Made by a program: the position numbers and the translations under genes. A stretch of 64,000 nucleotides of DNA from Candidatus Omnitrophota bacterium (lineage in GTDB: Bacteria; Omnitrophota; Gorgyraeia; Zapsychrales; Zapsychraceae), in NCBI GenBank assembly GCA_029261065.1, contig JAJDCB010000030.1:324876-388875 (forward strand), written 5' to 3'. The notes below the pieces were generated by a model. The model worked only from the letters and a program-made list of their open reading frames with translations, was not told the origin of the DNA and searched no databases. This document shows positions 9,541 through 60,334 of this stretch, piece by piece (within the stretch, counting starts at the first letter, position 1; every line of letters begins with the position of its first letter).

Positions 9541-9543
9541 GTT

Positions 9544-9777: not shown

Positions 9778-9785
9778 AGGAAAAG

Positions 9786-15320: not shown

Positions 15321-15536
15321 CAAGAATAACCAAGTTACAAGATACAAGGTATCCCGCCGTCGGCGGGACCCCGCCAACGGCGGGGCAAAAAAGATACAAA
15401 AACCAATTACGGAACAACCAAACAGTTTGGTTATTTAGTTATTGGTGAATTGGTTATTTTTTGCCTTTGCGTCTAGAGACGCAGGTCACGGCCGAAGGCC
15501 GTGATATCTTGTAACTTGTACCTTGGTTATTCTTGC
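15320..15536. mobile_element. MITE-like element, copy B (217 bp), same TIRs plus a GC-rich hairpin insert (CCCGCCGTCGGCGGG / CCCCGCCAACGGCGGGG)
   Basis: Seen directly. Confidence 0.75.
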
Positions 15537-15551
15537 CAGGAGAGATACATC

Positions 15552-21193: not shown

Positions 21194-21194
21194 T

Positions 21195-26509: not shown

Positions 26510-26526
26510 GGGTAGAGAATTCAAAT

Positions 26527-29091: not shown

Positions 29092-29099
29092 TTAATCAT

Positions 29100-29853: not shown

Positions 29854-29873
29854 AAATGCCGGGAGTAAGGTTA

Positions 29874-32878: not shown

Positions 32879-32879
32879 G

Positions 32880-33986: not shown

Positions 33987-33989
33987 AAG

Positions 33990-39978: not shown

Positions 39979-41766
39979 ATGTTGAAATTCGTTAAATTAA
40001 AAAATTATAAAGAGGTCTTATGGTTTTTCTTTAAACCTTATAAGTTCCAAAGTATGGGTGTTTTTTGTCTGATGGCATTGGCGGGAGCTCTTGAGGCATT
40101 TAATTTGCTTGCGATCTATCCTATTATTAATTATGGCTTGGCATTGGAAAATCAAAGTCGGGCGCTTCAATTTTTGGATTCTCTTGTTGTAAGTTTAGGT
40201 GATGACAATTTATTTTTGTCGGCCTGTGTATTGCTGTTAATTGCATCTTTCTTGGCGGTTCTGGCAAAGGTTGCGTATCATGTGTTCTCTAATTTGCTTA
40301 TTAAAAATATTGTAGGTGATCATCAAAAGAAGATTTTTCAGAAATTCTTAAATGCTGAATATAAATATTTTGTTAGAAGCCAACAAGGTAAATTGATTTA
40401 TGCTGGAACGACCGCCACGACACGTATGGCCAACAATATTGTTTATACGTTAAGGTTGGTTAATAGTTTGATAACCTGTACTTTTTATGCAGTCATGTTA
40501 ACGGTGTTAGCATGGCAGGGTATGATTCTTATTACTTTTATTGGTATACTTTACATGGTTTTTACAAAGGTTATTCTTCAAAAGGTTATTAATCGTTACG
40601 CACATCTTAATGTTGAAGAGGAGAGAAAGAAGAATGTCATTTTAAATGAATTTATTACAGGCATTAAACCGATTAAAGCCTTTAATAATAATCGATATTG
40701 GCAAGGAAGATATGATCAAACAGTTGAGCGTAGTGTGATGTTTAATTTTAAGGTTCTTATAGGACACATTATGCCGGATATCTTTTTAAAATTTACATTT
40801 TTTGTAACTTTTGCATTGATTGGTATTTTTATGCATATGCGTTTGTCAGGTCAAATTTTACCTGTATTACCTTTATTAGCTACCTTTACCATGGTGGCTA
40901 GTCGATTATTTCCTTATGTGGGGTTAATCGGATTTGATATTATGGCGATTGCGCGTGTTATGCCAGATACAAAAATTGTTTATGACCTTCTGAATAAAGA
41001 TATTGAAGATCATCGTGATGGGACGTTGGTGGCAGATACATTTCGTGATTGTGTCAGATTAAATAACGTATTTTTTAGATATAAAGGAATGGATGAGGAT
41101 TTGTTAAAAGGTGTTTCGTTGAGTATCAAAAAGGGAGAAATGACGGCCATTGTTGGGCATTCGGGTTCAGGGAAATCGACTCTTGTGAGTCTTCTTTTAA
41201 AATTATATGACGTTGATAAGGGGAATATTACGGTGGATGGCATTGATCTTAAAACGTTAAGTAAGAAATCATATTTAACTCAGATTGGTTATGTCAGTCA
41301 GGAAATTTTCTTATTTAATGGAACGATTAAAGATAATATTCGCTTTGGAGATCAAGAATCAACAGATGAAGATATTATTCAAGCGGCACAATTAGCGAAT
41401 GCGCATGAGTTTATTATAGATACAGAGAATGGATATGACTCACTTGTGGGGGATGCAGGAGTTAAATTATCGGGTGGACAAAGACAGCGTATTGCAATTG
41501 CGCGCGCGATGTTACGCCAACCAAAAATAATTATTTTAGATGAAGCGACAAGTTCGCTTGATAATATTTCTGAAAAAGCGGTGCAAGAAGCCATATTTAA
41601 AGTATCACAAAGGACAACGGTCGTTGTGATTGCGCATCGGCTTTCGACGGTTCAAAAGGCGGATAAGATTATTGTGTTTGAGAATGGTGAGGTGCAGGAA
41701 GAAGGAAAGCATGATGAGTTATTGGCGGGGAAGAATCGTTATTTTGAGTTGTATACGGCAAGTTAG
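39979..41766 (+). CDS. ABC exporter, fused permease and ATPase (MsbA/lipid A-type exporter family)
   Basis: 6 TM helices then an NBD with GHSGSGKST, LSGGQRQR and ILDEATS motifs. Confidence 0.8.
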   Translation: MLKFVKLKNYKEVLWFFFKPYKFQSMGVFCLMALAGALEAFNLLAIYPIINYGLALENQSRALQFLDSLVVSLGDDNLFLSACVLLLIASFLAVLAKVAYHVFSNLLIKNIVGDHQKKIFQKFLNAEYKYFVRSQQGKLIYAGTTATTRMANNIVYTLRLVNSLITCTFYAVMLTVLAWQGMILITFIGILYMVFTKVILQKVINRYAHLNVEEERKKNVILNEFITGIKPIKAFNNNRYWQGRYDQTVERSVMFNFKVLIGHIMPDIFLKFTFFVTFALIGIFMHMRLSGQILPVLPLLATFTMVASRLFPYVGLIGFDIMAIARVMPDTKIVYDLLNKDIEDHRDGTLVADTFRDCVRLNNVFFRYKGMDEDLLKGVSLSIKKGEMTAIVGHSGSGKSTLVSLLLKLYDVDKGNITVDGIDLKTLSKKSYLTQIGYVSQEIFLFNGTIKDNIRFGDQESTDEDIIQAAQLANAHEFIIDTENGYDSLVGDAGVKLSGGQRQRIAIARAMLRQPKIIILDEATSSLDNISEKAVQEAIFKVSQRTTVVVIAHRLSTVQKADKIIVFENGEVQEEGKHDELLAGKNRYFELYTAS

Positions 41767-41999: not shown

Positions 42000-42974
42000 A
42001 TGAAAAACATTTTAATCACCGGCTCAGGCGGTTTCATCGGTTCCCATCTTACAGAAGAATGCGTTAAGCGCGGATTTAAAGTGCGAGCATTTTTGCATTA
42101 TAATTCATCTAGTTCTCGAGGATGGCTTGAGGATTCGGTTTATAAAAATGATATTGAATTTATTTCAGGTGACGTTCGGGATTATGATGCGGTTTCAAGT
42201 GCGATAAAGGGGTGTGATGGTGTTTTTCATCTCGCAGCCCTTGTGGGTATTCCTTATTCTTACGTGTCCCCACTAGCCTACATCCGAACAAATGTTGAGG
42301 GCACGTACAATGTTTTACAATCTTCTCGTGAATATAATGTGAAAAATTGTTTGGTCACATCAACAAGCGAGACGTACGGTACGGCTCAACATGTTCCGAT
42401 TGATGAAAAACATCCACGTAATGCTCAATCGCCTTATGCGGCGAGTAAGGTTGCTGCCGATCAATTGGCGTTAAGTTATTATCGTTCGTTTGATTTACCT
42501 GTCAAAATTGTGCGCCCCTTTAACACGTTTGGCCCACGACAATCCGCAAGAGCCATTATTCCAACGGCTATTTGTCAAATGCTTAAAGGGCAGATGGAGC
42601 TTAAGTTTGGAAATTTATCGCCGACACGGGATTTTACGTTTGTTAAAGATACGGTTGCTGGCATGATTGCTATTGCCCAGTGTGAAAAGCTTAACGGAGA
42701 GGAAGTGAATATCGGTATGAATCAAGAAATTTCCATTGGAGATTTAATCCAAAAGATTGCAAAACTCATAAACACCTCAAGCAAAATAAAACAAGATCAA
42801 TCGCGCGTAAGACCTGAGGCGAGCGAAGTTCAGCGATTACTTTGTGATAATACAAAAATTTTTAAAGAAACAAATTGGAAGCCCCAATACACTTTGGAAA
42901 AAGGGTTAACAGAAACGATAGACTCTATCGCCAAGAGTTTACATCTTTATAAACCGGAATTATACAATGTCTAA
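42000..42974 (+). CDS. NAD-dependent nucleotide-sugar 4,6-dehydratase/epimerase (LegB/PseB-like candidate)
   Basis: ILITGSGGFIGSHL and YAASK (YxxxK) motifs. Immediately followed by a DegT aminotransferase gene. Confidence 0.7.
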   Translation: MKNILITGSGGFIGSHLTEECVKRGFKVRAFLHYNSSSSRGWLEDSVYKNDIEFISGDVRDYDAVSSAIKGCDGVFHLAALVGIPYSYVSPLAYIRTNVEGTYNVLQSSREYNVKNCLVTSTSETYGTAQHVPIDEKHPRNAQSPYAASKVAADQLALSYYRSFDLPVKIVRPFNTFGPRQSARAIIPTAICQMLKGQMELKFGNLSPTRDFTFVKDTVAGMIAIAQCEKLNGEEVNIGMNQEISIGDLIQKIAKLINTSSKIKQDQSRVRPEASEVQRLLCDNTKIFKETNWKPQYTLEKGLTETIDSIAKSLHLYKPELYNV

Positions 42975-44160
42975 AGTCATACCACTATCCGAACCATCCT
43001 TAAATGGGCGCGAATGGGACAATATTAAAGAGTGTCTTGATACGGGTTGGGTTTCAACAGCGGGGAAGTTTGTTGATCGATTTGAAGAAGGTATTGCGCA
43101 ATATACACATTCTAAGTTTGCTATTGCGACAAGCAGTGGGACGGCGGCTTTGCATGTCTCTTTGTTGCTAGCAGGTGTTATGCCAGATGATGAAGTTATT
43201 GTTCCAACACTTACATTTATAGCACCCATTAATACGGTTCGATATGTTCAGGCACATCCAGTCTTTATGGATTGTGATTCCTATTTTAATTTGGATGTAG
43301 AGAAGGTTCGAAATTTTATTTTAAAGGAAACAGAATTTAAAGGTGGTGTGAGTCGAAATAAGACCTCACAAAGAGTCATTCGAGCTATTATTCCTGTCCA
43401 CATGTTTGGACATGCCGTGGATTTAGAATCATTAACAGGTCTTTTAGAAGAACGGAATATTAAGATCATTGAAGATGCGACGGAAAGTTTGGGGGCGAGT
43501 TACACTCAAGGCAAATTAAAGGGAAGAGCAACAGGGACCGTTGGCCAATTGGGATGTTTTTCTTTTAATGGCAATAAAATTATTACCACAGGTGGCGGTG
43601 GGATGATTGTTACGGATGATGAACAGCTAGCTTTAAAAGCTAAATATTTAACAACACAAGCCAAAGATGATGGGATTCGAAATATTCATCATGAGGTCGG
43701 TTACAATTTTCGACTCAATAATATTCAAGCGGCAATGGGTGTAGCTCAGTTGGAGTCGCTACCAGAAATTATTGCAAAGAAGAAGAATAATTACATGCTT
43801 TATAAAAGTAAATTACAAGATGTTGCCGGCATCAACTTAGTTAATACTCCTGATTATGCCGAATCAAACTATTGGATGTATGCCATCAATATATGTAAGG
43901 AAACATTCGGTCAAAGCTGTGAGAATGTTATGAATGTGTTGTTAAGTCATGACGTTGGGGTGAGACCTTTATTTTATCTCAATCATTTACAAAAGCCGTA
44001 TGCTGATTGTCAATCATATAACGTTGAATTGGCGAAGCAATTATTAGAAATAACACTGTGTGTGCCAAGCAGTGCAGACTTAAAGGAAGAAGATATTGAT
44101 TTTATTATTGGTTTAATCAAAGGTATGAGCCAGAGAGTAAGTTCTGGTCTAGTTAACTAG
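42967..44160 (+). CDS. DegT-family PLP-dependent aminotransferase (LegC/PseC-like candidate)
   Basis: DegT family blocks. 8-nt overlap with the upstream dehydratase gene. Confidence 0.75.
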   Translation: MSKVIPLSEPSLNGREWDNIKECLDTGWVSTAGKFVDRFEEGIAQYTHSKFAIATSSGTAALHVSLLLAGVMPDDEVIVPTLTFIAPINTVRYVQAHPVFMDCDSYFNLDVEKVRNFILKETEFKGGVSRNKTSQRVIRAIIPVHMFGHAVDLESLTGLLEERNIKIIEDATESLGASYTQGKLKGRATGTVGQLGCFSFNGNKIITTGGGGMIVTDDEQLALKAKYLTTQAKDDGIRNIHHEVGYNFRLNNIQAAMGVAQLESLPEIIAKKKNNYMLYKSKLQDVAGINLVNTPDYAESNYWMYAINICKETFGQSCENVMNVLLSHDVGVRPLFYLNHLQKPYADCQSYNVELAKQLLEITLCVPSSADLKEEDIDFIIGLIKGMSQRVSSGLVN

Positions 44161-44271: not shown

Positions 44272-46458
44272 ATGAAAAGAGAAATTAAAATTTTAAGTAC
44301 TCTAGGGCCATCAAGCATGGAAACATCAACGATTAAGAAATTAGATGATATGGGTGTGGGGGTATTTCGCATTAACTTATCACATACCCCTCTTGATCAA
44401 ATTGAAAAAAATGTAAAGCACATTATCGCATCAACGGATAAACCTCTTTGTTTGGATTTGGAAGGGGCGCAAGTGCGTAGTGGTTTGATGGCCAATAACA
44501 GAGATGTTTTTGAAGAAGGGGGCGTTGTTCGCATTCACAAAGATCCTTTGGTGGGGGATGCTAAGAATATCAATTTGACGCCCAGTTTTGTTGTCGATGA
44601 GATTGAACCTGGAGATTTGATTAGTATCGATTTCGATACATTATTGTTGCATGTTTATAAAAGAGAAGGTGAGACTCTTTTGGCGAAAGTTGTCAGTGGT
44701 GGAACAGTGGGAAGTAATAAAGCTGTGACGGTTGATCGTAATATTATTTTGCCCCCCTTATCACCGAAAGATAAAGAAGCGGTTGTGATTGGATTAAAAC
44801 ACAAGGTTCCTTATATTGCATTATCTTTTGCGAATCGAAAAAGTGATGTTGAAGAATTAAGAGCTTTAGTGGGGGATAAGATGAAAATTATTTCTAAGAT
44901 CGAAAGTCGTGATGGTCTTCGTAATCTAGAAGAGATTCTTATCGCGTCAGATGCAGCTTTAATCGATCGAGGTGATATGTCTCGCGAGGTATCGATTGAA
45001 TTAATTCCTTCTATTCAAAAACGGATCATCAAGAAGGCTAATGATTTGCATACTCCGATTTATGTGGCTACCAATCTTTTGGAGTCCATGGTTGATCGTC
45101 CTGTTCCGACACGGGCTGAGGTTAATGATATTATTAACACGTTGTTAGATGGAGCCAATGGTTTGGTGCTTGCCGCAGAGACGGCCATTGGTCGTTATCC
45201 AGTTGAATGTGTCAATATGGTGAGGCGATTGTCAAAGGCCTTTAACAATACAGATAGCGAAACAACTTTAATGGAGATGGCCAATCAAGAGGTGTCATCA
45301 CTACATCTTAATAAACCGCATGGCGGGGTTATGGTTAATAAAAAAAAATTTACTGCTAATCAGGAACGTATTGCAGGTTTAAGAAAATTGTTTGTTGATG
45401 AAACGGTTCTTTTAGATGTGCAACAAATAGCGGTTGGAACGTATTCTCCTGTTGATGGTTTTATGAATAGAGATGAGATTCATTCGGTGCTTGATGATTA
45501 TAAGCTTCCCTCAGGTGATGTCTGGACGCTACCTATATGTTTGCAAGCCAAGAAAGAGGATATCAAACATTTAAGAGTTGGTGATGAGATTGCTCTTGTT
45601 TCAAAAAGAGATGATGTGATTTATGCCGTGTTGCATCTAGATGATGTGTATAACTTTGATTTTAATGATATTTCTCAAAAATGGTTTAATACGACAGACA
45701 AAAATCATCCTGGCGTGAATAAATTAAGTCAATCGGGTGAATGTTTTCTTGGCGGGAAAGTAGATTTAATTAGACGTTTGCCATCGGAATATCAACAATA
45801 CACGTTAACGCCTTTACAAACACGTCAAATCTTTGAGAAAAAAGGGTGGAACACCATTGTTGGATTTCACACGCGTAATGTGGTGCATCGCGCTCATGAA
45901 TTTCTTCAACTAACAGCCCTTGATCGTTATGGCATTGATGGATTGTTCGTTCACCCCATTATTGGTCCTAAGAAAAAAAATGATTATAACCCGGATGTGA
46001 TTTTAAAAAGTTATTCCATGATGATGGATCAGTTTTATCCAAAAAACCATGTGGTTTTAGGAGCCTTTCTTTCCTATAGTCGCTATGCAGGCCCAAGAGA
46101 AGCTGTTTTTACAGCTCTTTGTCGCAAGAATTTTGGATGCACCCATTTTATTGTTGGCCGAGATCATACGGGTGTTGGAGATTTTTATTCTAAGGATGCT
46201 TCCAAGGAATTATTTGGGCAATTAGGAGATATCGGTATTCAACCCGTTTTTTTTGATGAAGTTCATTATTGTCAAAGTTGTAAGTTGTACGTTGAAAAAT
46301 GTGATCATGCCAAGGAAGACATCAAACATATTAGTGGCACCCAAGCGCGAGAGATGTTTTCAAAAGGTGAACAGCCTCCGGCGTGGTTTATGCGTGAAGA
46401 AATTAGTCGTATTATTTTAGAAGATATTACTAATCAAAAAGAGGTTTTTGTCACATGA
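44272..46458 (+). CDS. fusion protein: pyruvate-kinase-like catalytic domain (N-terminal) + sulfate adenylyltransferase/ATP sulfurylase (C-terminal)
   Basis: N-terminal PK blocks RINLSH, IISKIESRDG, IDRGDMS and VATNLLESMVDRPVPTRAEVNDI..DGANGLVLAAETA.GRYP. C-terminal sulfurylase blocks GFHTRNVVHRAHE and GRDHTG. Confidence 0.65.
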   Translation: MKREIKILSTLGPSSMETSTIKKLDDMGVGVFRINLSHTPLDQIEKNVKHIIASTDKPLCLDLEGAQVRSGLMANNRDVFEEGGVVRIHKDPLVGDAKNINLTPSFVVDEIEPGDLISIDFDTLLLHVYKREGETLLAKVVSGGTVGSNKAVTVDRNIILPPLSPKDKEAVVIGLKHKVPYIALSFANRKSDVEELRALVGDKMKIISKIESRDGLRNLEEILIASDAALIDRGDMSREVSIELIPSIQKRIIKKANDLHTPIYVATNLLESMVDRPVPTRAEVNDIINTLLDGANGLVLAAETAIGRYPVECVNMVRRLSKAFNNTDSETTLMEMANQEVSSLHLNKPHGGVMVNKKKFTANQERIAGLRKLFVDETVLLDVQQIAVGTYSPVDGFMNRDEIHSVLDDYKLPSGDVWTLPICLQAKKEDIKHLRVGDEIALVSKRDDVIYAVLHLDDVYNFDFNDISQKWFNTTDKNHPGVNKLSQSGECFLGGKVDLIRRLPSEYQQYTLTPLQTRQIFEKKGWNTIVGFHTRNVVHRAHEFLQLTALDRYGIDGLFVHPIIGPKKKNDYNPDVILKSYSMMMDQFYPKNHVVLGAFLSYSRYAGPREAVFTALCRKNFGCTHFIVGRDHTGVGDFYSKDASKELFGQLGDIGIQPVFFDEVHYCQSCKLYVEKCDHAKEDIKHISGTQAREMFSKGEQPPAWFMREEISRIILEDITNQKEVFVT

Positions 46459-47012
46459 GTCAAGCACGTGTGCTGTGGTTTACAGGTTTGTCAGGTTCAG
46501 GCAAATCAACGATTGCTGAAGGGTTGTGCCAACGTCTTCTAGATAGAGGTTTTAAGGTTAGGATTTTGGATGGAGATGATATTCGAGAATCTTATCCTAA
46601 AAGTCTTGGATTTACACCTGAAGATATAAAAACGAATAATCGATTGATTGCGCAAATGTGTTTAGATCAAACTCAAGAGTATGATTTTCTATTAGTACCT
46701 GTGATTGCTCCATTTCAAGAATCTAGAAGCGAATCAAAGAAGATGTTAGGGGATCAATTGTCTTTTGTTTATGTCAAAGCGTCTTTAGATACGGTTATTG
46801 AAAGAGATACGAAAGGATTTTATAAAAAAGCCTTAAACAAAGAGATTGAGCATTTTATTGGAATCGATCCAAGGGTTCCTTATGAAGAGCCGGAAAATGC
46901 AGAGATCGTTTTGGACACAGAGCAACACAGGGTTGATGATTTAATCTTAAGGGTTGAAATTTTTTTAAAATTGGATTTAAACAAGAATGAAACAGTCTCA
47001 AACAACACATAA
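46455..47012 (+). CDS. cysC: adenylyl-sulfate (APS) kinase
   Basis: VLWFTGLSGSGKSTIA P-loop and CysC-family length. ATGA overlap. Confidence 0.85.
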   Translation: MSQARVLWFTGLSGSGKSTIAEGLCQRLLDRGFKVRILDGDDIRESYPKSLGFTPEDIKTNNRLIAQMCLDQTQEYDFLLVPVIAPFQESRSESKKMLGDQLSFVYVKASLDTVIERDTKGFYKKALNKEIEHFIGIDPRVPYEEPENAEIVLDTEQHRVDDLILRVEIFLKLDLNKNETVSNNT

Positions 47013-48645
47013 TACAGCGCTACCAGGGATCTTTCAATTTTTAAAGAAACAAGCTGTGCAATTAAGGTATGGCAAAGAATTGAAATTGAGGAAAAACTGG
47101 TATTATCAACCTTTGAGTGAAGGGCTGCATGGATTGGAATTCTTTAAATCAACAACTCTGACACCCCATTGGCTGACATTAAATCAGGAATTAAGAGCTG
47201 GTGTTATGATTGATCAAAAGAAAGGCTTTATTTTAGAAATCAATGCCACAGAGGACATCGAATGGATTCAATGTGCTGTGGGTGCTCTTAAAAAAAGTGA
47301 GATTAAAAGAGTAAGAATTTCTATTGATGACAAATGCAAAGCGGAAATTTTGGATATGGCAACAGATATTTGGAATGATATGCGTATAAAAATTGAAGGG
47401 CAACAAACAAGCTTTCAATTAAGGGTTGAATGGGAAGGAGCGGGCACGTTGTATTATTCGCATCCTTTTATTAACAAAGGCATATCCCCTAAAGAAGCAA
47501 ACTCTCAAAAGAATATTATTTGTTTGGTGTTAGATGGTATCACAGCGGAATGTATTGATAAGGACAGGACGCCTCATATGTATGCTTTTTTTAAAGGCGG
47601 GGTTGAGTGTAGCAATGTTTACTCTCAAGGAGATTGGACGCTGCCGGCTTTCTCATCGATGTTAACAGGACAATATCCTTCTAAACATGGTGTGACAAAT
47701 CCAGACCAACATGAAACGGTTTTGGATGCAAAAACGCAGACGTTGCCACAGCTATTAAGAGAAGGCGGTTATCGCACCTTTGGTTATTCAAGCCATCTTC
47801 GATTTAATCCCGCTTATGGCCATGCGAAAGGTTTTGAACGATTCTTTTTTCGACCCTTAGCCTATGACCATAACTATGTTCAGCAAATACACGAAGCGAT
47901 ATGGCAGCTTGAGGCCCACCGGGATGAACCAAACTTTTTATTTCTTCATTTTTTTGATTCGCATCCACCGTATAAGCCGTTTACGTATTTAAAGAATGTT
48001 TTAACAAAACCTTTTAGAACAGGGGACTCTTCGTATCGAACGAAGGAAGATGGTGACGATCGTTATGAATTGGATGATCGGTTAACAAAATTAAAAGAAA
48101 TGGACTTGGCTTTTGGAATGTTTTTTTCGTATCTAAAAGAGCAGCCTTGGTTTGATCAATCCACCGTTATTCTTACGGCTGATCATGGGGTGACTCAAGT
48201 TCAGGAGAAAAAACCTTTATTATTATTTGATCGCGTCAATATTCCTTTATTTGTACGATCAAGTGAATTGAGTCAACACAAGAACAGTGATTTTGTTGAG
48301 GGTAATGTTGACTTGATGGCTTCAATTCTACATTTGGCGCAAATTGAGACGCCACCGAACGTAGATGGAAGGTTGTGGTCTTTTTTAGGTGGAGAGATAA
48401 GAAATCAAGCCTTTAGTGAATCGTTATATAGAAAAGTTTACTCAGCGGTGATACGCGATCATTCCAACTGTTATCATTTTAAATGTCCCTTTGATGAGAT
48501 TACAAGAAAGATTAGTTTCGAAGCCCTTGAATCTCTTACGGCTTATAAGCGTGTTAATGGACGAGATGTGGAAGAAGATGTTGTGGTTGAAAATAATCAG
48601 CAAGGTGATGTTCAGGATAAATTTAGAAAATATTTAGAGGTCTAG
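46987..48645 (+). CDS. alkaline-phosphatase-superfamily protein (sulfatase/phosphotransferase-like, predicted Thr nucleophile) with an N-terminal domain of unknown function
   Basis: Blocks VLDGIT..D..RTP, TLPAFSSMLTG (Thr in the C-x-P-x-R position) and LTADHG. Confidence 0.45.
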   Translation: MKQSQTTHNTALPGIFQFLKKQAVQLRYGKELKLRKNWYYQPLSEGLHGLEFFKSTTLTPHWLTLNQELRAGVMIDQKKGFILEINATEDIEWIQCAVGALKKSEIKRVRISIDDKCKAEILDMATDIWNDMRIKIEGQQTSFQLRVEWEGAGTLYYSHPFINKGISPKEANSQKNIICLVLDGITAECIDKDRTPHMYAFFKGGVECSNVYSQGDWTLPAFSSMLTGQYPSKHGVTNPDQHETVLDAKTQTLPQLLREGGYRTFGYSSHLRFNPAYGHAKGFERFFFRPLAYDHNYVQQIHEAIWQLEAHRDEPNFLFLHFFDSHPPYKPFTYLKNVLTKPFRTGDSSYRTKEDGDDRYELDDRLTKLKEMDLAFGMFFSYLKEQPWFDQSTVILTADHGVTQVQEKKPLLLFDRVNIPLFVRSSELSQHKNSDFVEGNVDLMASILHLAQIETPPNVDGRLWSFLGGEIRNQAFSESLYRKVYSAVIRDHSNCYHFKCPFDEITRKISFEALESLTAYKRVNGRDVEEDVVVENNQQGDVQDKFRKYLEV

Positions 48646-48650: not shown

Positions 48651-49292
48651 ATGAATGATGTTGTTGTTATCGGAGGTGGAGGACATGCGCGGGTTGTCAT
48701 TAGTCTTTTAAAGAAAATAAAAGATTATCATGTGTTGGGATATGTGGCTCAGGAGGATAATGGAGACATTCTTGGGGTTTCGTATTTGGGGAGTGATCAA
48801 AAGTTAGAAACTATAATAAAAGAAAATCCGAGATGTGCGGCTGTTATTGGTGTTGGTAAAATTGATTTAGAAGATAAGCGTATGGCAATAAAAGCAAAAT
48901 TAGAACTATTAAAATTTGATTTACCAGCAATTGTTTCTCCTTTTGCGATTATTAATGAGAATATATTTTTAGGAGAGGGCGTGGTGATCATGGATGGAGT
49001 TGTAATACAAACAGGAGCGAGGATTGGAAATTGCGCACTTGTAAATACGGGGTGTTGTGTTGATCATGATTGCGTGATTGGAGACAATGTTCATCTCGCC
49101 CCTGGCGTTTCTTTAAGTGGTGGCGTTGAGATTGGGGATAATAGTTTGATAGGCACAGGTTCTAGTGTTGTGCAATATAAGAAAATTGGAAAGGATTGTT
49201 TGATTGGGGTAGGAAGTGCTGTTGTTGATGATTGTGTAAGTTCTGGTACGTATGTCGGCGTGCCGGCAAGAAAAGTGAAAGACTCGTCATGA
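48651..49292 (+). CDS. hexapeptide-repeat N-acetyltransferase, PglD/NeuD/LegH-like
   Basis: N-terminal VVIGGGGHARVV Rossmann-like motif plus C-terminal left-handed beta-helix repeats. Confidence 0.75.
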   Translation: MNDVVVIGGGGHARVVISLLKKIKDYHVLGYVAQEDNGDILGVSYLGSDQKLETIIKENPRCAAVIGVGKIDLEDKRMAIKAKLELLKFDLPAIVSPFAIINENIFLGEGVVIMDGVVIQTGARIGNCALVNTGCCVDHDCVIGDNVHLAPGVSLSGGVEIGDNSLIGTGSSVVQYKKIGKDCLIGVGSAVVDDCVSSGTYVGVPARKVKDSS

Positions 49293-50320
49293 GTAAAAGA
49301 AGAAAAAAAGTTTATATTATTGGCGAAGCTGGCGTTAATCATAATGGCAGTTTAAAGTTAGCCAAACAATTAATTGATGTGGCGGCCCGTTGTGGGTGTG
49401 ATGCGGTCAAGTTTCAAGTGTTTCAAGCGGATCTGCTTTTAAGCAAGAAGGCTCATTTGGCTCAGTATCAAAAAGAGGGCATCAGTTCAAAAATCAAGAC
49501 ACAACATGACCTTATAAAGGGATTAGAATTGTCTTTTGAAGATTTCGAAAAGTTATACAAGCATTGTGAGAAGAGGGGTATTGAATTTTTGGCAACGCCT
49601 TTTGATAAGACAAGTGTGGATTGGTTAATGGCATTAAAGGTTTCGTGTTTTAAAATTTCTTCGGGCGAACTAACCAATTTACCGTTTTTAGATTATGTGT
49701 CACGCAAGAAAAAACCAATGATATTATCGACGGGAATGGCTAATATGGATGAGATTAAAGAAGCTGTCGATACGATTAAGAAGAATAACAGTAAAATTGT
49801 TCTGTTGCATTGTATTACAGAATATCCGGCGCCCATGGATCAATTAAATTTGCGCGCGATACAAACGTTGCAGAATCATTTTGGTGTTGAAGTTGGTTTC
49901 TCTGACCATTCGTTGGGCATTGAAGCCTCTCCTGCGGCAGTGGCTTTGGGAGCGACGATTATAGAAAAACATTTTACGTTGGATCGAGGAATGGCTGGTC
50001 CAGATCATAAGGCGTCCTTAGAAGAAAATCAGCTTAAAAACATGATCACAAATATTCGTCTTGTGGAATCGGCTTTAGGAGACGGTGTTAAGAAAATTGC
50101 GGCATGCGAGAAGAAATATGTAGATTTAGTGCGCAAGAGTTTGGTTGCGGTCTCAACCATAGATAAGGGACAAGTTATTAAAGAGTCAGATCTAGCGATT
50201 AAGAGGCCTGCCGGAGGAATTGGACCAAAAGCATTTAATCGAGTCATTGGGCTAAAAGCACGGAAACGAATTGTATCAGACAGTATTATTCGTTGGAGCG
50301 ATGTTTATGAAAAAGCGTAA
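49289..50320 (+). CDS. neuB: N-acetylneuraminate-synthase-family enzyme (LegI/NeuB-like)
   Basis: VYIIGEAGVNHNGS N-terminus and C-terminal SAF domain. ATGA overlap. Confidence 0.85.
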   Translation: MSKRRKKVYIIGEAGVNHNGSLKLAKQLIDVAARCGCDAVKFQVFQADLLLSKKAHLAQYQKEGISSKIKTQHDLIKGLELSFEDFEKLYKHCEKRGIEFLATPFDKTSVDWLMALKVSCFKISSGELTNLPFLDYVSRKKKPMILSTGMANMDEIKEAVDTIKKNNSKIVLLHCITEYPAPMDQLNLRAIQTLQNHFGVEVGFSDHSLGIEASPAAVALGATIIEKHFTLDRGMAGPDHKASLEENQLKNMITNIRLVESALGDGVKKIAACEKKYVDLVRKSLVAVSTIDKGQVIKESDLAIKRPAGGIGPKAFNRVIGLKARKRIVSDSIIRWSDVYEKA

Positions 50321-51488
50321 AATATGTATCATTTCAGGATCACGCGCGGATTATAGTCATATGTATTGGCTTATTAAAGAATGTGATCAAGATAAAGACA
50401 TTAATCTTCAGCTTTTGGCGACAGGCATGCATTTATCGAAACGTCATGGTTTGAGTTATCAGATGATTCAACAAGATGGCTTTAAGATTGGGAAGAAAAT
50501 TGATATTCTCCGTTACTCTAACACAGATGAAGGGGTTGCTCATAGTGTGGGGTTAGGGTGTCAACTGTTTACAAAAGCGTACAAAGAACTAAAGCCAGAT
50601 ATTGTTGTGATTTTTGCAGATCGTTTTGAGATGATGGCGGCTTGCCTATCAGCTTACATGTTAAAGATTCCCATCGTTCATCTGCATGGAGGAGAAACAT
50701 CTCAAGGTGCGCTTGATGAAGCAATACGACACAGTATTACGAAAATGGGATCGGTTCATTTTACGGCTACTGAGGATTATCGTCGACGCGTTGTTCAATT
50801 AGGGGAAAATCCAAAACGTGTTTTTCACGTAGGTTCCCCAGGATTAGAATCGTTGTCCCATCAAAAATATTTGAGCAAGAGCGAGTTAGCTAAAAAATTA
50901 AAATTTGATTTTGATGGTCAAGTAGCCCTTATGACTTATCATCCGGTTACGCTTGAGAAAAATACAGTTACAAAGCACGTGGGGCAATTACTCAAAGCTA
51001 TAAAAGCAACATCTCTTAAGGTGATTATGACTAAGTCAAATGCGGATGCTCAAGGTGATGTGATTAACAAGATGTTGCGTGATTTTTGTCGTGATAACCC
51101 CAAACGATTTAAGCTTTATGATTATTTGGGTCAATTTCTCTATTATAATTGTCTGAAATCTGCAGATGTGTTAATCGGTAACTCATCAAGCGGTATTGTT
51201 GAGGCTCCGTCTTTTAAGATACCAGTTGTTAATGTCGGTGATAGACAAAAGGGACGAGTTCGTTCGGTTAATATTATTGATGTTAATAATTCAACAGCCA
51301 ATATTTTAGCTGGAATAAAAAAAGCGTTATCCAAAAGCTTTTTAACAAAATTAAAGGGAATGAATAATCCTTATCAGAAGTATAAAGATGGACGCGTTGC
51401 GTATCGCATTAAAGAAAAATTAAAGAAAATAAAGTTGGATGATTCGATTTTAAAAAAAGAATTTTACGATATCAAGTTTCAGTATTAA
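50307..51488 (+). CDS. neuC: hydrolysing UDP/GDP-HexNAc 2-epimerase (NeuC/LegG-like)
   Basis: KICIISGSRADYSHM N-terminus and epimerase_2 family blocks. Confidence 0.8.
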   Translation: MKKRKICIISGSRADYSHMYWLIKECDQDKDINLQLLATGMHLSKRHGLSYQMIQQDGFKIGKKIDILRYSNTDEGVAHSVGLGCQLFTKAYKELKPDIVVIFADRFEMMAACLSAYMLKIPIVHLHGGETSQGALDEAIRHSITKMGSVHFTATEDYRRRVVQLGENPKRVFHVGSPGLESLSHQKYLSKSELAKKLKFDFDGQVALMTYHPVTLEKNTVTKHVGQLLKAIKATSLKVIMTKSNADAQGDVINKMLRDFCRDNPKRFKLYDYLGQFLYYNCLKSADVLIGNSSSGIVEAPSFKIPVVNVGDRQKGRVRSVNIIDVNNSTANILAGIKKALSKSFLTKLKGMNNPYQKYKDGRVAYRIKEKLKKIKLDDSILKKEFYDIKFQY

Positions 51489-51497
51489 AGGAATGCT

Positions 51498-52568
51498 ATG
51501 AAATTAAAGGTTAGAAAAATGTTTGTGGAAGAAGATTTGTCCGTTAAGGAAGCTATGCGCAAGATGAGTGAGATTGGTGAGAAAATTCTCTTTGTCGTTA
51601 ATAATCAGAAAAAGCTTCTTGGAACGGTGACTGATGGTGATATTCGTCGTTGGGTGTTGGCAGAGGGAGCTTTGACGGAGGAGATTAAGAAAGTTTATAA
51701 TCCAAAACCATTTTACGTTGATAAAGGAAGCGATGTGAAGGAAGCCAAAGAAATTATGCTTAAAGAAAAGTTAGGCGGTCTTCCTGTTTTAGATGAGGAT
51801 AAGGTTGTCGATGATGTTTTGTTGTGGGACCGTGTTTGGGGAGCCAATGGGGGGGAGATCAAAAATAAGATTGATATTCCGGTTCTTATTATGGCAGGGG
51901 GAAAAGGCACGCGCTTAGATCCTTTCACAAAAGTATTGCCTAAGCCGTTGATACCTATCGGTGAGAAAACAATAATTGAAATTATTCTTGATAAATTTAA
52001 ACAATATGGCACTAAAGAGTATTACATCTCTATTAATCATAAATCACGCATGATGAGGGCTTTCTTTGAAGAAGTTAATACAGGGTTTTCCATTCATTTT
52101 GTTGAGGAGAAAAAACCTTTAGGCACGGCGGGAAGTTTGAAGTTGTTAGAGGGAAAAATCAAGAAGTCTTTAATTGTTTCAAATTGCGACATTATTATTG
52201 ATGCCGATTATAACGATATTGTTGATTTTCATTATGCAAAAAAGAATGATATTACAATTGTTGGTTCCTTCCGACATTTTACTGTACCTTATGGGATTTG
52301 TCAGATCGAAGAAGGTGGTAATTTGGTAAGCATGCAAGAAAAGCCAGAGTACGACTTATTAGTTAACACAGGGATGTATGTGATTAATAAAAGTGTTTTT
52401 AAATTTGTAAAGAAAAACAAATATTTAAATATGACGAGTTTAATTGATATTGTTAAAGATCAAGGTGGCAAGGTAGGCGTGTTTCCTATTGATGAAAAAT
52501 CTTGGATTGATGTAGGCCAATGGGAAGACTATCATCGCGCTATTCGTGCTTTTGAATTAAAACAGTAA
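51498..52568 (+). CDS. CBS-domain + sugar-1-phosphate nucleotidyltransferase (PtmE-like)
   Basis: Tandem CBS pair at the N-terminus, then GGKGTRL nucleotidyltransferase motif. Confidence 0.7.
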   Translation: MKLKVRKMFVEEDLSVKEAMRKMSEIGEKILFVVNNQKKLLGTVTDGDIRRWVLAEGALTEEIKKVYNPKPFYVDKGSDVKEAKEIMLKEKLGGLPVLDEDKVVDDVLLWDRVWGANGGEIKNKIDIPVLIMAGGKGTRLDPFTKVLPKPLIPIGEKTIIEIILDKFKQYGTKEYYISINHKSRMMRAFFEEVNTGFSIHFVEEKKPLGTAGSLKLLEGKIKKSLIVSNCDIIIDADYNDIVDFHYAKKNDITIVGSFRHFTVPYGICQIEEGGNLVSMQEKPEYDLLVNTGMYVINKSVFKFVKKNKYLNMTSLIDIVKDQGGKVGVFPIDEKSWIDVGQWEDYHRAIRAFELKQ

Positions 52569-52580: not shown

Positions 52581-53468
52581 ATGAAAAATGTTCGCGTTAT
52601 CGCCCGACTTGATATTAAGGGACCTAACCTTGTTAAAGGTATTCATCTAGAAGGTTTAAGGGTGTTGGGAAAGCCAGAACACTTTGCCCAATATTATTAT
52701 GAAAATGGGGCGGATGAATTATTTTATATGGATATTGTGGCCAGTTTGTATGGAAGAAATAGTTTATTAGATATTATTGAACGCACATCTAAAGAAGTTT
52801 TTATTCCTATTATTGTAGGCGGAGGTTTAAGAACGATTGAAGATATTAATGCTGTACTTCGCGCGGGAGCTGATAAGGTATCCCTTAATACAGCCGCGAT
52901 TAAAAATCCTGATTTTATCCGACAAGCCGCTAATCGGTTTGGATCGTCAACGATTATCGTTTCTATTGAGGCAATAAAGGAAAAGGAAGGACAGTATTTT
53001 GTTTATACGGATAATGGTCGTGAATATACTGGCAAAGAAGTTTTTCAATGGGCGAGAGAGGTATGCGAGTTGGGGGCTGGGGAAATTATGATAACTTCTG
53101 TTGATCGGGAAGGCACAGGGACAGGTTATGATCTTGAGTTAACTAAAAAAGTGGCTGAGTCTGTTCCTATTCCTGTCATTGCATGTGGTGGGGCTGGTCG
53201 ATTGGAACATATTGAAAATGTTGTTATTGAGGGTAAGGCTGATGCGTTAACGGTGGCATCTATGATTCATTATGATTTTATTAAGCATCACACGATTGAG
53301 GCGGATTACTCAGCGGAAGGAAATGTTGAATTTCTAAAAAAGAAAATGATTTTCTCTAAAATAGAGACAGTTAGTTTAGAAACGATTAAGAGTCATCTCA
53401 TGAACTCTGGCATCAATTGTCGTTTTAAACATCATGGCGAAATCAACAAACCATTAAACATATGTTGA
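52581..53468 (+). CDS. HisF-like cyclase subunit (WbuZ-like) of a glutamine-dependent sugar amidotransferase complex
   Basis: HisF (beta/alpha)8 blocks, e.g. IIVGGG. Confidence 0.75.
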   Translation: MKNVRVIARLDIKGPNLVKGIHLEGLRVLGKPEHFAQYYYENGADELFYMDIVASLYGRNSLLDIIERTSKEVFIPIIVGGGLRTIEDINAVLRAGADKVSLNTAAIKNPDFIRQAANRFGSSTIIVSIEAIKEKEGQYFVYTDNGREYTGKEVFQWAREVCELGAGEIMITSVDREGTGTGYDLELTKKVAESVPIPVIACGGAGRLEHIENVVIEGKADALTVASMIHYDFIKHHTIEADYSAEGNVEFLKKKMIFSKIETVSLETIKSHLMNSGINCRFKHHGEINKPLNIC

Positions 53469-53506
53469 ATTCGCTTAAGGCCAGGGCATTGTCAAAAGAG
53501 CAATGA

Positions 53507-53655
53507 AAGATACAAGTTACAAGACACAAGATACAAAAAAATATCAATGTTCAAGGTCCAATAACCAAAAAGGCTATCGTCAAGAAATTGTTTGGAATTT
53601 TTATTTTGTGAATTGTTTCTTTTTTGTATCTTGTGTCTTGTAACTTGGTTATTTT
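53507..53655. mobile_element. MITE-like element, copy D (degenerate; GTTACAAGACACAAGATACAAAAAA ... TTTTTTGTATCTTGTGTCTTGTAACTTGGTTATT)
   Basis: Seen directly. It separates the hisF-like and hisH-like genes. Confidence 0.55.
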
Positions 53656-53699
53656 ATAGAGTTTTTGACAATACGAAGACCATATCAAGGAGCTAATAA

Positions 53700-54404
53700 A
53701 TGTCTGAGAAACGAGATCAGTATGTAGCTATTATTGATTATAAGATGGGTAATCTATTTAGTGTTAAGCAAGCTTGTGAGCAAGTTGGTATTAAGGCTAT
53801 TGTTACAGAAAAAAAAGAAGAGATTCTTAATGCTTCTGGGCTGATATTGCCTGGCGTCGGAGGTTTTGGTGATGCCATGCAACATTTAAGGGATCTAGAT
53901 TTAATTGAGGTGATCAGAGATGAGATTGCTGCTGGCAAACCTTTGTTAGGGATTTGTTTAGGGTTACAGTTGCTTATGTCTGAGAGCGAAGAATTTGGAT
54001 CCCATGAGGGGCTTGGATTAATTGAGGGAAAGGTTAAAAAATTTAAATTAGAAAATAGTGAAGGTCGGGTGAGTAAAGTTCCTCAAGTGGGCTGGAATCA
54101 GATTGCTAGTGTACGGACAAAACAAGAATTACATTGGAATCAAACGCCATTGCAACATATTAAGGAAGATGATTATTTGTATTTTGTGCATTCTTATTTT
54201 GTTGAACCTACGTTAAGTGATGTTGTTTTATCTCAAAGCACATACGAGGGAGTGTCATTTTGTTCTAGCGTTTTAAAAGATAATATATTTGCTGTTCAAT
54301 TTCATCCTGAGAAGAGTGCCTCTGTTGGGCTTCAGATCTATAAGAATTGGTTTACACAATTTTGTCAAGAACCTACAAATAAGGAGATGAGTCGTGTTTT
54401 TTAA
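53700..54404 (+). CDS. HisH-like class I glutamine amidotransferase (WbuY-like)
   Basis: Catalytic Cys block GICLGLQLL and the H-P-E triad region (QFHPEKS). Confidence 0.75.
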   Translation: MSEKRDQYVAIIDYKMGNLFSVKQACEQVGIKAIVTEKKEEILNASGLILPGVGGFGDAMQHLRDLDLIEVIRDEIAAGKPLLGICLGLQLLMSESEEFGSHEGLGLIEGKVKKFKLENSEGRVSKVPQVGWNQIASVRTKQELHWNQTPLQHIKEDDYLYFVHSYFVEPTLSDVVLSQSTYEGVSFCSSVLKDNIFAVQFHPEKSASVGLQIYKNWFTQFCQEPTNKEMSRVF

Positions 54405-56886: not shown

Positions 56887-56894
56887 AATAATTA

Positions 56895-57836
56895 ATGATG
56901 AAGATAGTTATGTTTGGATTAGGTTCAATTGGTCATAGGCATGCCAGGATCTTAAAAGATCATTTTGATTGTAAGCTGTATGCTTATCGTCGGAAAAAAG
57001 GTGAGGGTAACGACTTGGGGGTAGAAGAAATTGATAGCGATCAAGAGCTTCAAGCCCTTAATGCCGATATCGCCTGTATTTGTAATCCAACATCGTTTCA
57101 TATGGATACAGCTATAAAATGTGCCAAGTTAAATATGCATTTGTTCATTGAAAAACCGTTGTCGCATTCTTTATCAAAAATTGATGAGCTAACATCGTTG
57201 TGTCATAAGAAACATTTGACGTGTTACACGGCATATAACTTAAGGTTTCATCCTGTTATAGGAAAGATTAAAGTGTTGCTTCAGAAAAGAAAGTTGTATC
57301 ACGCACGCATTGTTTGTAGTTCTTATTTACCTGATTGGCGAGCAGATCAAGATCATAAGTTAAGCTACTCCTCATCAAAAGAATTGGGGGGCGGTGTTGT
57401 TTTTGATTTGTCCCACGAATTGGATTTTACGCAGTATCTTTTTGGATCAATTAAAGAGATGGAGGGGCATTATCTTCGACGTGCTGATATCACCCTTGAT
57501 TCGGAGGACTGTGTGGATATCTTGTTGCGTTGTGACGATAATTTACCGGTGAATATGCATCTTAATTTTTTATCTCACCTTAAGGAGCGTACGATCAAAG
57601 TAGATTTTGAAAATGGATATATCGTGGGTGATTTAATGAATAATGAAGTCCGGTTTTATTGTGATGGTGAGCTTCAACAATTTAGTTTTGATGAGAATAT
57701 GCATGATGTCTATCGCAATCAATGGCAGTATTTTTTTGATCATATGAATAAACCAAAGGGGATGAATCAAATTGATGAATCCAAAGAATTATTAGAAAAA
57801 ATGGTGAAATTTAAGGTTGAAGCACATGCAGGATAG
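56895..57836 (+). CDS. Gfo/Idh/MocA-family NAD(P)-dependent oxidoreductase (PtmF-like)
   Basis: N-terminal Rossmann motif MFGLGSIGHRH. Confidence 0.65.
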   Translation: MMKIVMFGLGSIGHRHARILKDHFDCKLYAYRRKKGEGNDLGVEEIDSDQELQALNADIACICNPTSFHMDTAIKCAKLNMHLFIEKPLSHSLSKIDELTSLCHKKHLTCYTAYNLRFHPVIGKIKVLLQKRKLYHARIVCSSYLPDWRADQDHKLSYSSSKELGGGVVFDLSHELDFTQYLFGSIKEMEGHYLRRADITLDSEDCVDILLRCDDNLPVNMHLNFLSHLKERTIKVDFENGYIVGDLMNNEVRFYCDGELQQFSFDENMHDVYRNQWQYFFDHMNKPKGMNQIDESKELLEKMVKFKVEAHAG

Positions 57837-58542
57837 AATTTTATTAACGGTGGCTGCTCGAGGGGGATCTAAAGGGGTTAAGAATAAAAATATTCGTGAT
57901 CTTAATGGACTTCCTTTAATCGCGCACACTATTAATCAAGCCATAGCTTGGGGAAAAGCGGATTCAATTGTTTGTTCGACTGATTCACAAGATATTGCCG
58001 ATGTTGCTCGTGAATATGGAGCTCAAGTGCCTTTTATGCGTCCTGAACATTTAGCGGAAGATACTTCAGGAAAACGGGATGTGCTTAAACACGCTTTAAA
58101 ATATATGGAAGATCAGACGCTAAGCAAATTTAACATCCTTATTGATCTAGATGCAACAGCTCCCATTCGTACTTTAAGCGATTTGGATGGTTCTTTGGAA
58201 TTGTTTAAAGAAAAACAAGCGAAGTGTGTTTTCAGTGTAACACCTGCACGAAAGAATCCTTATTTTAATATGGTGGAGCTCGATGCTAACAATGTCTCAA
58301 GGTTATCCAAGAATTTAAAAAAACCGTTAGTTCGAAGGCAAGATGCACCAAAGGTATTTGATATGAATGCTTCTATTTATATTTATGATCGCGAGTTTTT
58401 ATTGGATGAAAAGTCAGATACCGTATTTTCAGATCAATCCTATGCCTGGGTGATGGATGAAATATCCGCTTTTGATATTGATACCGAACAAGATTTTCGG
58501 TTTTTAGAATTTTTAACTAAAGAACAGTTGGTTCAACTATGA
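57826..58542 (+). CDS. neuA: CMP-nonulosonic acid synthetase (acylneuraminate cytidylyltransferase; LegF/PtmB/NeuA-like)
   Basis: N-terminal AARGGSKGVKNKN motif. Confidence 0.8.
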   Translation: MQDRILLTVAARGGSKGVKNKNIRDLNGLPLIAHTINQAIAWGKADSIVCSTDSQDIADVAREYGAQVPFMRPEHLAEDTSGKRDVLKHALKYMEDQTLSKFNILIDLDATAPIRTLSDLDGSLELFKEKQAKCVFSVTPARKNPYFNMVELDANNVSRLSKNLKKPLVRRQDAPKVFDMNASIYIYDREFLLDEKSDTVFSDQSYAWVMDEISAFDIDTEQDFRFLEFLTKEQLVQL

Positions 58543-59327: not shown

Positions 59328-59345
59328 AGAAAGTGATGTGTATTG

Positions 59346-60326: not shown

Positions 60327-60334
60327 AGAAACTT

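Follow-up and report, generated by a model that had tools for sequence, protein, structure and literature searches.

A pyruvate kinase-like module fused to ATP sulfurylase in a probable PAPS-supply cassette of a nonulosonic-acid glycan locus from an Omnitrophota bacterium

This work concerns a 64,000-nucleotide stretch of DNA from a Candidatus Omnitrophota bacterium (GenBank assembly GCA_029261065.1, contig JAJDCB010000030.1, positions 324,876 to 388,875 of the forward strand; hereafter the window). In it, a gene encoding a pyruvate kinase (PK) barrel fused to an ATP sulfurylase is followed by a gene for adenosine 5'-phosphosulfate (APS) kinase, cysC, and by a gene for a sulfatase-fold protein of the alkaline phosphatase (AlkP) superfamily. 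These three genes very probably constitute a cassette that supplies 3'-phosphoadenosine 5'-phosphosulfate (PAPS) for glycan sulfation. The fuller reading, in which the PK module moreover recycles ADP with phosphoenolpyruvate (PEP) inside this cassette, is in our view moderately probable. The fusion, although uncharacterised, is very widespread and no isolated case; there is good support for its role in PAPS supply, and the mechanism proposed for its PK module is plausible. The cassette comprises the following elements.

44272..46458, + strand: PK-PUA_2-ATP sulfurylase fusion, 728 amino acids with its linker (open reading frame, Pfam, NCBIfam, architecture of 120 homologs)
44278..45213, + strand: PK barrel, A and B domains, residues 3-314 (PF00224)
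45253..45354, + strand: flexible linker between the domains, residues 328-361 approximately (predicted local distance difference test, pLDDT, of AlphaFold2; dip in identity)
45313..46422, + strand: PUA_2 and ATP sulfurylase catalytic domain, residues 348-717 (TIGR00339, NF003166, 8A8D)
46455..47012, + strand: APS kinase (CysC), 185 amino acids (PF01583, TIGR00455)
46987..48645, + strand: sulfatase-fold (AlkP-superfamily) protein, 552 amino acids, predicted cytoplasmic, with Thr218 and an N-terminal beta-sandwich (Pfam, AlphaFold2, Foldseek)

The reading frames of the fusion and of cysC overlap by 4 nucleotides, and those of cysC and of the sulfatase-fold gene by 26 nucleotides. Three Pfam domains were recognised in the fusion, namely the PK barrel (residues 3-314, E 1.9e-69), PUA_2 (348-501, E 7e-39) and ATP-sulfurylase (509-717, E 4e-79). 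CysC matched PF01583 (APS_kinase) with an E-value of 3.5e-41 and scored 157.1 bits against TIGR00455, above the cut-off of 138.7; its translation contains the P-loop GLSGSGKST. A PK domain fused to ATP sulfurylase, followed by cysC and then by a sulfatase-fold gene, had been proposed in an earlier, sequence-only reading of this DNA, and open reading frames and Pfam matches confirmed this order. Every motif quoted at that time (RINLSH, IISKIE, IDRGDMS, VATNLLESM, TRAEV, ETAIGRYP and GFHTRNVVHRAHE) was found in the translation of the fusion. An assembly artefact was ruled out: the 120 best database matches, 49-61% identical to the fusion, all share its three-domain PK-PUA_2-sulfurylase architecture.

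The fusion had been described as unusual, which does not hold in the sense of rare. A search for further PK-sulfurylase fusions, using one genome per species, returned at least 512 loci in hundreds of species, distributed over Omnitrophota, Chloroflexi, Planctomycetota, Nitrospinota, Actinobacteria, Alpha-, Beta- and Deltaproteobacteria and others, with cultured carriers that include Salsipaludibacter albus and Mesorhizobium album. The closest match in this species-representative scan was 54% identical and came from Omnitrophota metagenome-assembled genomes (MAGs). Where homologs of the fusion carry a name in the databases, it is either 'sulfate adenylyltransferase' or 'pyruvate kinase'. The open-access literature yielded no account of such a fusion of PK and sulfurylase, and absence there is not proof.

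The genes surrounding the fusion were counted in 80 loci, after clustering of the neighbours without any presupposed answer. A sulfotransferase was located within six genes of the fusion in 51 of these loci and directly upstream of it in 27, and the sulfotransferases concerned fall into four distinct families. An APS kinase was found nearby in 30 to 33 loci by clustering and in 38 by tblastn, and directly downstream in 24; these co-occurrence counts are lower bounds, because the simple open reading frame caller missed some CysC genes that tblastn recovered (loci L017 and L057). At least 62 of the 80 loci had a sulfotransferase, a CysC or both. Other frequent neighbours were nonulosonic-acid genes and an ABC exporter. 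By contrast with these sulfotransferases, neither PAPS/APS reductase nor sulfite reductase was present among the conserved neighbours of the 80 loci, which argues that the fusion family is devoted to sulfate activation serving sulfotransferases. The exact gene order of the window (DegT aminotransferase, fusion, CysC, AlkP-type protein) recurs on an unrelated metagenome contig. The proposal of a built-in PAPS supply for a sulfated glycan, already put forward from the sequence, is thus strengthened by the sulfotransferases in 51 loci, by the CysC genes in at least 33 and by the presence in the window of both a sulfotransferase and a legionaminic-type gene set (see below).

As a separate observation, a 515-amino acid protein with a C-terminal P-loop kinase-like domain was encoded in eight loci (L025, L029, L031, L035, L053, L055, L071 and L079), never together with CysC. 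It may be an alternative APS kinase.

The PK half was clearly recognisable. The PF00224 match covers 327 of the 328 model positions (2-328), and the top PDB matches were bacterial pyruvate kinases (E 1e-55). PF02887 (PK_C, the C-terminal allosteric domain) gave no Pfam match in the fusion. As this allosteric domain is absent, the PK half falls under the pyruvate-kinase equivalog cut-offs, with 272.5 bits against a cut-off of 306.4 for TIGR01064 and scores likewise under the cut-offs of the remaining PK models. Judged from sequence, membership of the PK family is therefore borne out by fold and catalytic residues, and not by domain architecture or equivalog score.

Conservation within this half was indeed striking at the active site. 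Twelve residues (R33, N35, S37, H38, D62, R69, K209, E211, D235, T267, E271 and E303) were identical in all 80 family members compared, and K150 in 79; taken together, the metal, catalytic and nucleotide-site residues were conserved in 77 to 80 of the 80. These include the catalytic Lys (K209), the Mg ligands (E211 and D235) and the phosphate and cation site (R33, N35, S37 and D62), and the catalytic residues align with those of canonical PKs. Mean pairwise identity was highest, for the whole protein, in the PK A-domain (58-61%, versus 55.5% in the sulfurylase catalytic domain). Such strong conservation, together with invariant catalytic residues, is strong evidence against a domain that has decayed or is purely structural. 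Substitution of PK catalytic residues had been named beforehand as an outcome that would refute the proposal, and none was seen. Two residue assignments made on that occasion have to be corrected: the catalytic Lys is not in NLSH, being K209 of IISKIE, and the candidate proton-donor Thr is not that of ETA, being T267 of ATN. The residues named earlier are conserved anyway.

The sulfurylase half scored above both curated cut-offs (343 versus 323 for TIGR00339 and 419 versus 387 for NF003166). Its closest PDB match was 8A8D, a Methanothermococcus ATP sulfurylase (E 1.4e-102, about 50% identity). It displays the sulfurylase motifs F-H-TRN, HxxH, GxxKxxD and GRDH-T-G as well as a Cys3-His zinc site. 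Residues H539, H542, R535, N536, G629, R630 and H632 were present in 80 of 80 sequences and D631 in 77. In the GxxKxxD mobile loop, G565 was found in 74 and K568 in 75 of the 80, and D571 was invariant in a 17-sequence alignment.

The PK clade is also found in other arrangements. A search with the PK half alone retrieved stand-alone barrels of about 330 amino acids belonging to the same clade and sharing signature residues with the fused forms, as well as triple fusions in which PK, PUA_2, ATP sulfurylase and APS kinase form one chain (P0249, P0255 and P0284). Three stand-alone barrels could be placed in genomes, and all three belong to sulfate-activation operons: two immediately precede an APS kinase gene and have no sulfurylase nearby, and one shares an operon with a Sat-CysC gene. 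Through these events of fusion and fission, the PK module is connected with PAPS synthesis and, more specifically, with the ADP-producing kinase step. It should also be mentioned that P0286, a protein of 1051 amino acids, combines two PK barrels with an adenylate kinase and is thus another PK fusion with a nucleotide-recycling enzyme.

The mechanism that we propose comprises three steps. The sulfurylase half would convert ATP and sulfate into APS. CysC, translationally coupled to the fusion in this proposal, would make PAPS from APS and thereby free ADP. The N-terminal PK-like module, carried on its flexible linker, would regenerate ATP from that ADP with PEP, on site. Removal of ADP would free APS kinase from a dead-end enzyme-ADP-APS complex, and the net reaction would be the conversion of sulfate, ATP and PEP into PAPS, pyrophosphate (PPi) and pyruvate. 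The sulfotransferase encoded at 59343-60326, and possibly others, would then spend PAPS on the nonulosonic acid or on its carrier glycan. In this scheme, we infer PEP and ADP as the substrates of the PK module, relief of ADP inhibition as the selective advantage, and the identity of the sulfated acceptor.

Regeneration of ATP from PEP at the site of the unfavourable APS synthesis had been suggested from the sequence. The regeneration itself is favoured by the triple fusions, by the stand-alone PK barrels next to CysC and by in vitro data: human PAPS synthase produced almost no PAPS unless PK and PEP were supplied, because APS kinase enters a dead-end enzyme-ADP-APS complex (PMC9885120). A direct pull on the APS-forming step has to be abandoned, since the sulfurylase step releases PPi and not ADP. 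The logical partner of PK is the APS kinase step, which does release ADP.

Several observations weigh against this recycling of ADP with PEP, or against parts of the cassette as proposed. The PK module is fused to the sulfurylase, which produces no ADP, and not to the kinase. In the AlphaFold2 model of the whole fusion, two folded halves without fixed contact flank a disordered linker of about 30 residues (pLDDT below 50 at residues 328-361, mean pairwise identity of 23% at residues 321-347), so that no fixed channel is predicted between them. An APS kinase within 10 kb is missing from about half of the fusion loci. Moreover, when 14 PAPS-linked PK modules, fused and free, were aligned with 8 canonical full-length PKs, 13 clade-specific positions separated the two groups. 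The clade has D-x-E-G-A-Q where canonical PKs have D-x-Q-G-P-K, LIDRGDLSRE in place of MVARGDLGVE, ATNLLESM in place of ATQMLESM, and LAAET in place of LSxET, and several of these substitutions border the Mg-ligand loop (D232, S237 and R238) and the T267 loop (N268 and L269). In the sulfurylase half, the Gln of QxRN is replaced by His (H533) in 80 of 80 fusion sequences, and position 633, the Ala of GRDHA, is Thr in 65, Ser in 8 and Ala in only 7. Both Gln and Ala are present in the four aligned PDB ATP sulfurylases. These two residues contact sulfate; the sulfate of APS is held by three groups in all, of which they provide two, and the sulfate-site loops concerned are described as strictly conserved (PMC3779200). 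Membership of the sulfurylase family is accordingly indicated by score and by most motifs, with the exception of two sulfate-contact positions.

The substitutions beside the Mg-ligand loop and the catalytic Thr loop suggest that the donor or the acceptor of the PK module may differ from PEP and ADP. The module would then be an active phosphotransferase whose chemistry has not yet been described, using another phospho-donor, or transferring to another nucleotide or to a small anion of the sulfation pathway. This view, which we consider rather unlikely, accounts for 13 clade-specific changes around a catalytic core that was kept, is in line with the absence of the allosteric C-domain and with scores under the NCBIfam pyruvate-kinase equivalog cut-offs, and would suit the loci, about half of them, without a nearby APS kinase. 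It is opposed by the invariance of the Mg, monovalent-cation and PEP-phosphate residues and of the catalytic Lys and Thr, to which the nucleotide-site residues T10, P13, H38, R69 and K150, counted as invariant too, should be added. The APS kinase that is fused or adjacent in several arrangements also fits ADP recycling and argues against a PK that replaces the kinase; for this reason, a PEP-dependent 3'-kinase standing in for APS kinase in loci without cysC was rejected as the principal explanation. The substitutions may alternatively reflect a PK site reshaped to tolerate APS and PAPS, which are look-alikes of ADP.

The changes in the sulfurylase half raise a different question, that of the anion activated. 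A CysC homolog acts on cytidine diphosphoramidate in the phosphoramidate pathway of Campylobacter. By analogy, the sulfurylase-like half could activate an anion other than sulfate, the product of which would be 3'-phosphorylated by CysC to yield a PAPS-like donor for a non-sulfate modification. Two of the three sulfate-contact positions are changed (Gln to His in 80/80, Ala to Thr or Ser in 73/80), and the neighbouring AlkP-type enzyme has a Thr nucleophile typical of phosphoryl transfer. The Sat-CysC protein encoded beside a stand-alone PK (L087, 3994-5565) is deviant as well, with FNTRN and GRDQVS versus the canonical FQTRN and GRDHAG. We nevertheless judge such a substrate very improbable: the sulfurylase half lies above curated cut-offs and shares about 50% identity with a characterised ATP sulfurylase, CysC exceeds the equivalog cut-off for APS kinase, both the RN-motif Arg and the backbone NH contact are kept, and true Sulfotransfer_1 and Sulfotransfer_3 proteins are the commonest neighbours.

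A catalytically silent PK domain, acting only as an oligomerisation scaffold or as a sensor of PEP or another metabolite that regulates the sulfurylase, would have a precedent in fungal ATP sulfurylases, which possess a non-catalytic APS-kinase-like regulatory domain, and the PK A-domain is a natural oligomerisation module. Catalytic and metal residues that are invariant in 80 of 80 sequences, an A-domain that is the most conserved part of the protein, and the existence of the module as a free-standing protein beside APS kinase leave very little room for this explanation. Sat and CysC also open PAPS-dependent sulfate assimilation, yet ordinary assimilatory reduction for cysteine, placed in a glycan island by chance, is the least probable of these explanations, given that the cassette is flanked by LegC-like and LegH-like genes within a single operon of overlapping, co-directional genes and that sulfotransferases, not the PAPS/APS or sulfite reductases, dominate the 80 neighbourhoods. 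The preferred reading thus remains a PAPS cassette in which the PK module recycles ADP with PEP.

The third gene of the cassette encodes a protein with matches to Sulfatase (PF00884, E 1.7e-28) and Phosphodiest (PF01663, E 1.6e-16). Its AlphaFold2 model (pLDDT 85.7) consists of an N-terminal helix, a beta-sandwich and then the sulfatase fold, and the top Foldseek matches were S1 carbohydrate sulfatases (14-19% identity, E 1e-19, probability 1.00). A Thr at the sulfatase nucleophile position had been noticed from the sequence and was found again on alignment, where T218 matches the formylglycine Cys of solved sulfatases and of a phosphonate monoester hydrolase (T-L-P-A-F versus C-x-P-S-R), the Cys of 4UPK among them. 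The family consists of about 30 clusters with members of about 560 amino acids, and D183, W-T218-L-P, H321, H326 and D399-H400 are invariant in 26 sequences. The formylglycine motif C/S-x-P-x-R is replaced by an invariant W-T218-L-P-A-F, in which Phe occupies the place of the CxPxR Arg. Owing to this Thr in place of Cys and this Phe in place of Arg, the protein is not a formylglycine sulfatase. The Thr nucleophile with Asp and Asp-His metal ligands (D183, T218, D399 and H400) resembles that of Thr-type AlkP phospho-transferases and diesterases such as NPP, LtaS and EptA. LtaS and EptA are typically extracytoplasmic, with a membrane anchor or a signal peptide. No signal peptide or membrane segment was detected in the window protein, the maximal 19-residue Kyte-Doolittle mean being 0.8.

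Five of the six genomic contexts of this family, the window included, contain nonulosonic-acid and PAPS genes. The protein is accordingly predicted to be a cytoplasmic Thr-nucleophile metallo-hydrolase or transferase tied to the nonulosonic-acid pathway. With low confidence, its candidate role would be a phosphate- or sulfate-ester step on a nonulosonic-acid intermediate or on 3'-phosphoadenosine 5'-phosphate (PAP). A general PAP phosphatase is a weakened candidate: AlkP-like proteins occur in only about 10% of fusion loci, the family of the window protein tracks nonulosonic-acid genes instead, and its narrow distribution argues against such a function. The earlier assignment of an AlkP-type protein to the PAPS supply is hence retained as far as the Thr-type sulfatase fold and its place in the cassette are concerned; the protein is not a sulfatase, belongs to a small family tied to nonulosonic-acid operons, and would have only a putative part in PAPS supply.

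Three further observations relate to this superfamily. One member of the family (L085, 10001-11680) has type IV pilin-like (N_methyl) and T2SSE genes around it, and the 10 kb upstream of it contains no glycan genes. In alphaproteobacterial loci, the fusion is adjoined by another Thr-type family, whose motif is T-x-x-A-F. The AlkP-like match beside the fusion in L079 was set aside as an unrelated true sulfatase with a CxAxR motif.

Around the cassette, the window forms one co-directional glycan-biosynthesis island from about 14 kb to its end, in which the following genes flank the three described above.

39979..41766, + strand: MsbA-like ABC exporter (Pfam)
42000..44160, + strand: 4,6-dehydratase (42000) and DegT aminotransferase (42967), LegB/LegC-like, directly upstream of the fusion (Pfam)
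48651..52568, + strand: PglD-like N-acetyltransferase (48651), NeuB-type synthase (49232), NeuC-type hydrolysing 2-epimerase (50271) and CBS-nucleotidyltransferase (51498) (Pfam)
52581..59327, + strand: HisF-like protein, HisH-like protein, 830-amino acid tandem protein, GFO oxidoreductase, CMP-sugar synthetase (57817) and SDR (Pfam, tblastn)
59343..60326, + strand: sulfotransferase, presumed PAPS consumer (Sulfotransfer_3 and Sulfotransfer_1, above gathering score)

The acetyltransferase, synthase, epimerase and nucleotidyltransferase genes of 48651..52568 were likened, in that order, to LegH, LegI, LegG and PtmE. By Pfam, the Leg-type gene set is complete, with dehydratase, aminotransferase, N-acetyltransferase, 2-epimerase, NeuB-type synthase and CMP-sugar synthetase. 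On gene content, the window is thus predicted to hold a legionaminic-acid-type nonulosonic-acid locus, whose product may have legionaminic, pseudaminic or other stereochemistry. A sulfotransferase-like gene had been indicated at 59346-60326; it was confirmed, with a start at 59343 and two families above gathering score, and its product is 38-42% identical to that of the gene immediately upstream of the fusion in three Omnitrophota loci (L003, L004 and L010). Several genes near the fusion are 71-73% identical to those of an Omnitrophota MAG (L004). The MsbA-like exporter family also occurs near the fusion elsewhere, as a neighbour cluster in 11 loci and by tblastn matches in 17.

Two proteins of this region had no Pfam match. 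The 830-amino acid product of 54394-56886 is composed of two tandem halves of about 400 residues, each homologous to a protein of about 400 amino acids encoded together with HisF and HisH in related loci (72% identity to the Omnitrophota locus L004); this arrangement probably reflects duplication of an amidotransferase for an acetamidino group. Homologs of the 699-amino acid protein encoded at 60314-62413 are found directly downstream of the fusion and CysC in several Omnitrophota loci (e.g., L004, 12693-14753), and this protein is a candidate transferase for the sulfated sugar.

Other parts of the window deserve mention. Within the glycan island, a CYTH-domain protein, an 854-amino acid CotH-kinase-like protein and a VTC-domain protein are encoded side by side at 24918-29795; such a combination is associated with triphosphate or polyphosphate chemistry and would not be expected in a sugar locus. 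The segments 15501-22139 and 29856-34982 encode a heptose-type activation (PfkB kinase with cytidylyltransferase, SIS protein and epimerase), a split transketolase, two C-methyltransferases and a formyltransferase. Together, these genes point to a very elaborate, multiply modified glycan. Upstream of the island, at 3269-10983, lie genes for a TonB-dependent receptor, which indicates a diderm host, a siderophore-type ABC importer, a diphthamide-synthase-like protein and a HipA_C toxin-like protein.

Sulfate activation is thermodynamically and kinetically awkward, a difficulty known to be solved by GTP hydrolysis (CysN), by pyrophosphatase or by channelling to APS kinase. If our reading is true, a module that uses PEP to remake ATP from scavenged ADP would add a fourth natural solution, and the fusion would be nature's counterpart of the PK/PEP system with which chemists make PAPS in vitro. 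A compact single-chain PK-Sat-CysC protein could then serve the enzymatic sulfation of glycosaminoglycans and drugs. The hundreds of species, most of them uncultured, in which the fusion lies beside sulfotransferases suggest that bacteria bear sulfated surface glycans far more commonly than the cultured record shows. In the window, the cassette is linked to a nonulosonic acid; sugars of this class matter in host mimicry, and no report of a sulfated bacterial nonulosonic or legionaminic acid was found in the open-access literature, where absence is not proof. In addition, annotation of the PK clade as 'pyruvate kinase' or 'sulfate adenylyltransferase' can mislead MAG-based reconstructions of glycolysis and sulfur metabolism. 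A broader synthesis can be offered only tentatively, as we find it doubtful in its entirety: an unrecognised PK-like clade would be a dedicated part of prokaryotic PAPS synthases, whether fused, adjacent or triple-fused, and paired with a His-type sulfurylase; its remodelled site may exceed PEP/ADP chemistry; and the cassette would supply a sulfated sugar of legionaminic-acid type, the first to be described in bacteria, aided by a cytoplasmic Thr-nucleophile sulfatase-fold enzyme in a new phosphate- or sulfate-ester step.

Comparison with known systems places these elements in context. The legionaminic acid pathway of Campylobacter and Legionella involves LegB, LegC, LegH, LegG, LegI, LegF and PtmE, and the window likewise encodes a dehydratase, an aminotransferase, a PglD-like acetyltransferase, NeuC-like and NeuB-like proteins, a CMP synthetase and a CBS-nucleotidyltransferase. 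To our knowledge, the known legionaminic clusters carry no sulfate-activation, sulfotransferase or sulfatase-fold genes. The sulfatase-fold protein shares with S1 sulfatases and phosphonate monoester hydrolases the fold of the catalytic and C-terminal subdomains, the His of the SHPPY region and the D-H metal pair. It differs from S1 enzymes by Thr in place of Cys or Ser, Phe in place of the CxPxR Arg, the lack of a signal peptide and an extra N-terminal beta-sandwich, and its gene lies in a biosynthetic locus and not in a catabolic one.

Canonical PKs (PykF/PykA and PKM, PF00224 with PF02887) have the same A/B barrel, catalytic Lys, Mg-binding Glu and Asp, Arg/Asn/Ser/Asp site and Thr. The PK half of the fusion is 32-37% identical to them, lacks the C-terminal allosteric domain and bears the 13 clade-specific substitutions; its clade is encoded with sulfate-activation genes in the placed cases, whereas canonical PK is a glycolytic gene. 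Bifunctional PAPS synthases, such as Sat-CysC of Aquifex aeolicus (2GKS) and animal PAPSS1/2, likewise join sulfurylase and APS kinase in the service of sulfotransferases, and relatives of the window fusion include such kinase-fused forms. These synthases have no PK domain, whereas the fusion adds an N-terminal PK barrel and has His and Thr at two sulfate-site positions. In diatoms and other eukaryotes, triple fusions of APS kinase, ATP sulfurylase and pyrophosphatase also attach a helper enzyme that pulls the unfavourable activation of sulfate. That helper removes PPi, the product of the sulfurylase, whereas the PK module of the window would remove ADP, the product of the kinase, and remake ATP. 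Finally, the same set of sulfurylase, APS kinase and PK with PEP is used in the in vitro cascades for PAPS (PMC9885120), which are engineered mixtures of separate enzymes, whereas the window presents a natural genetic fusion.

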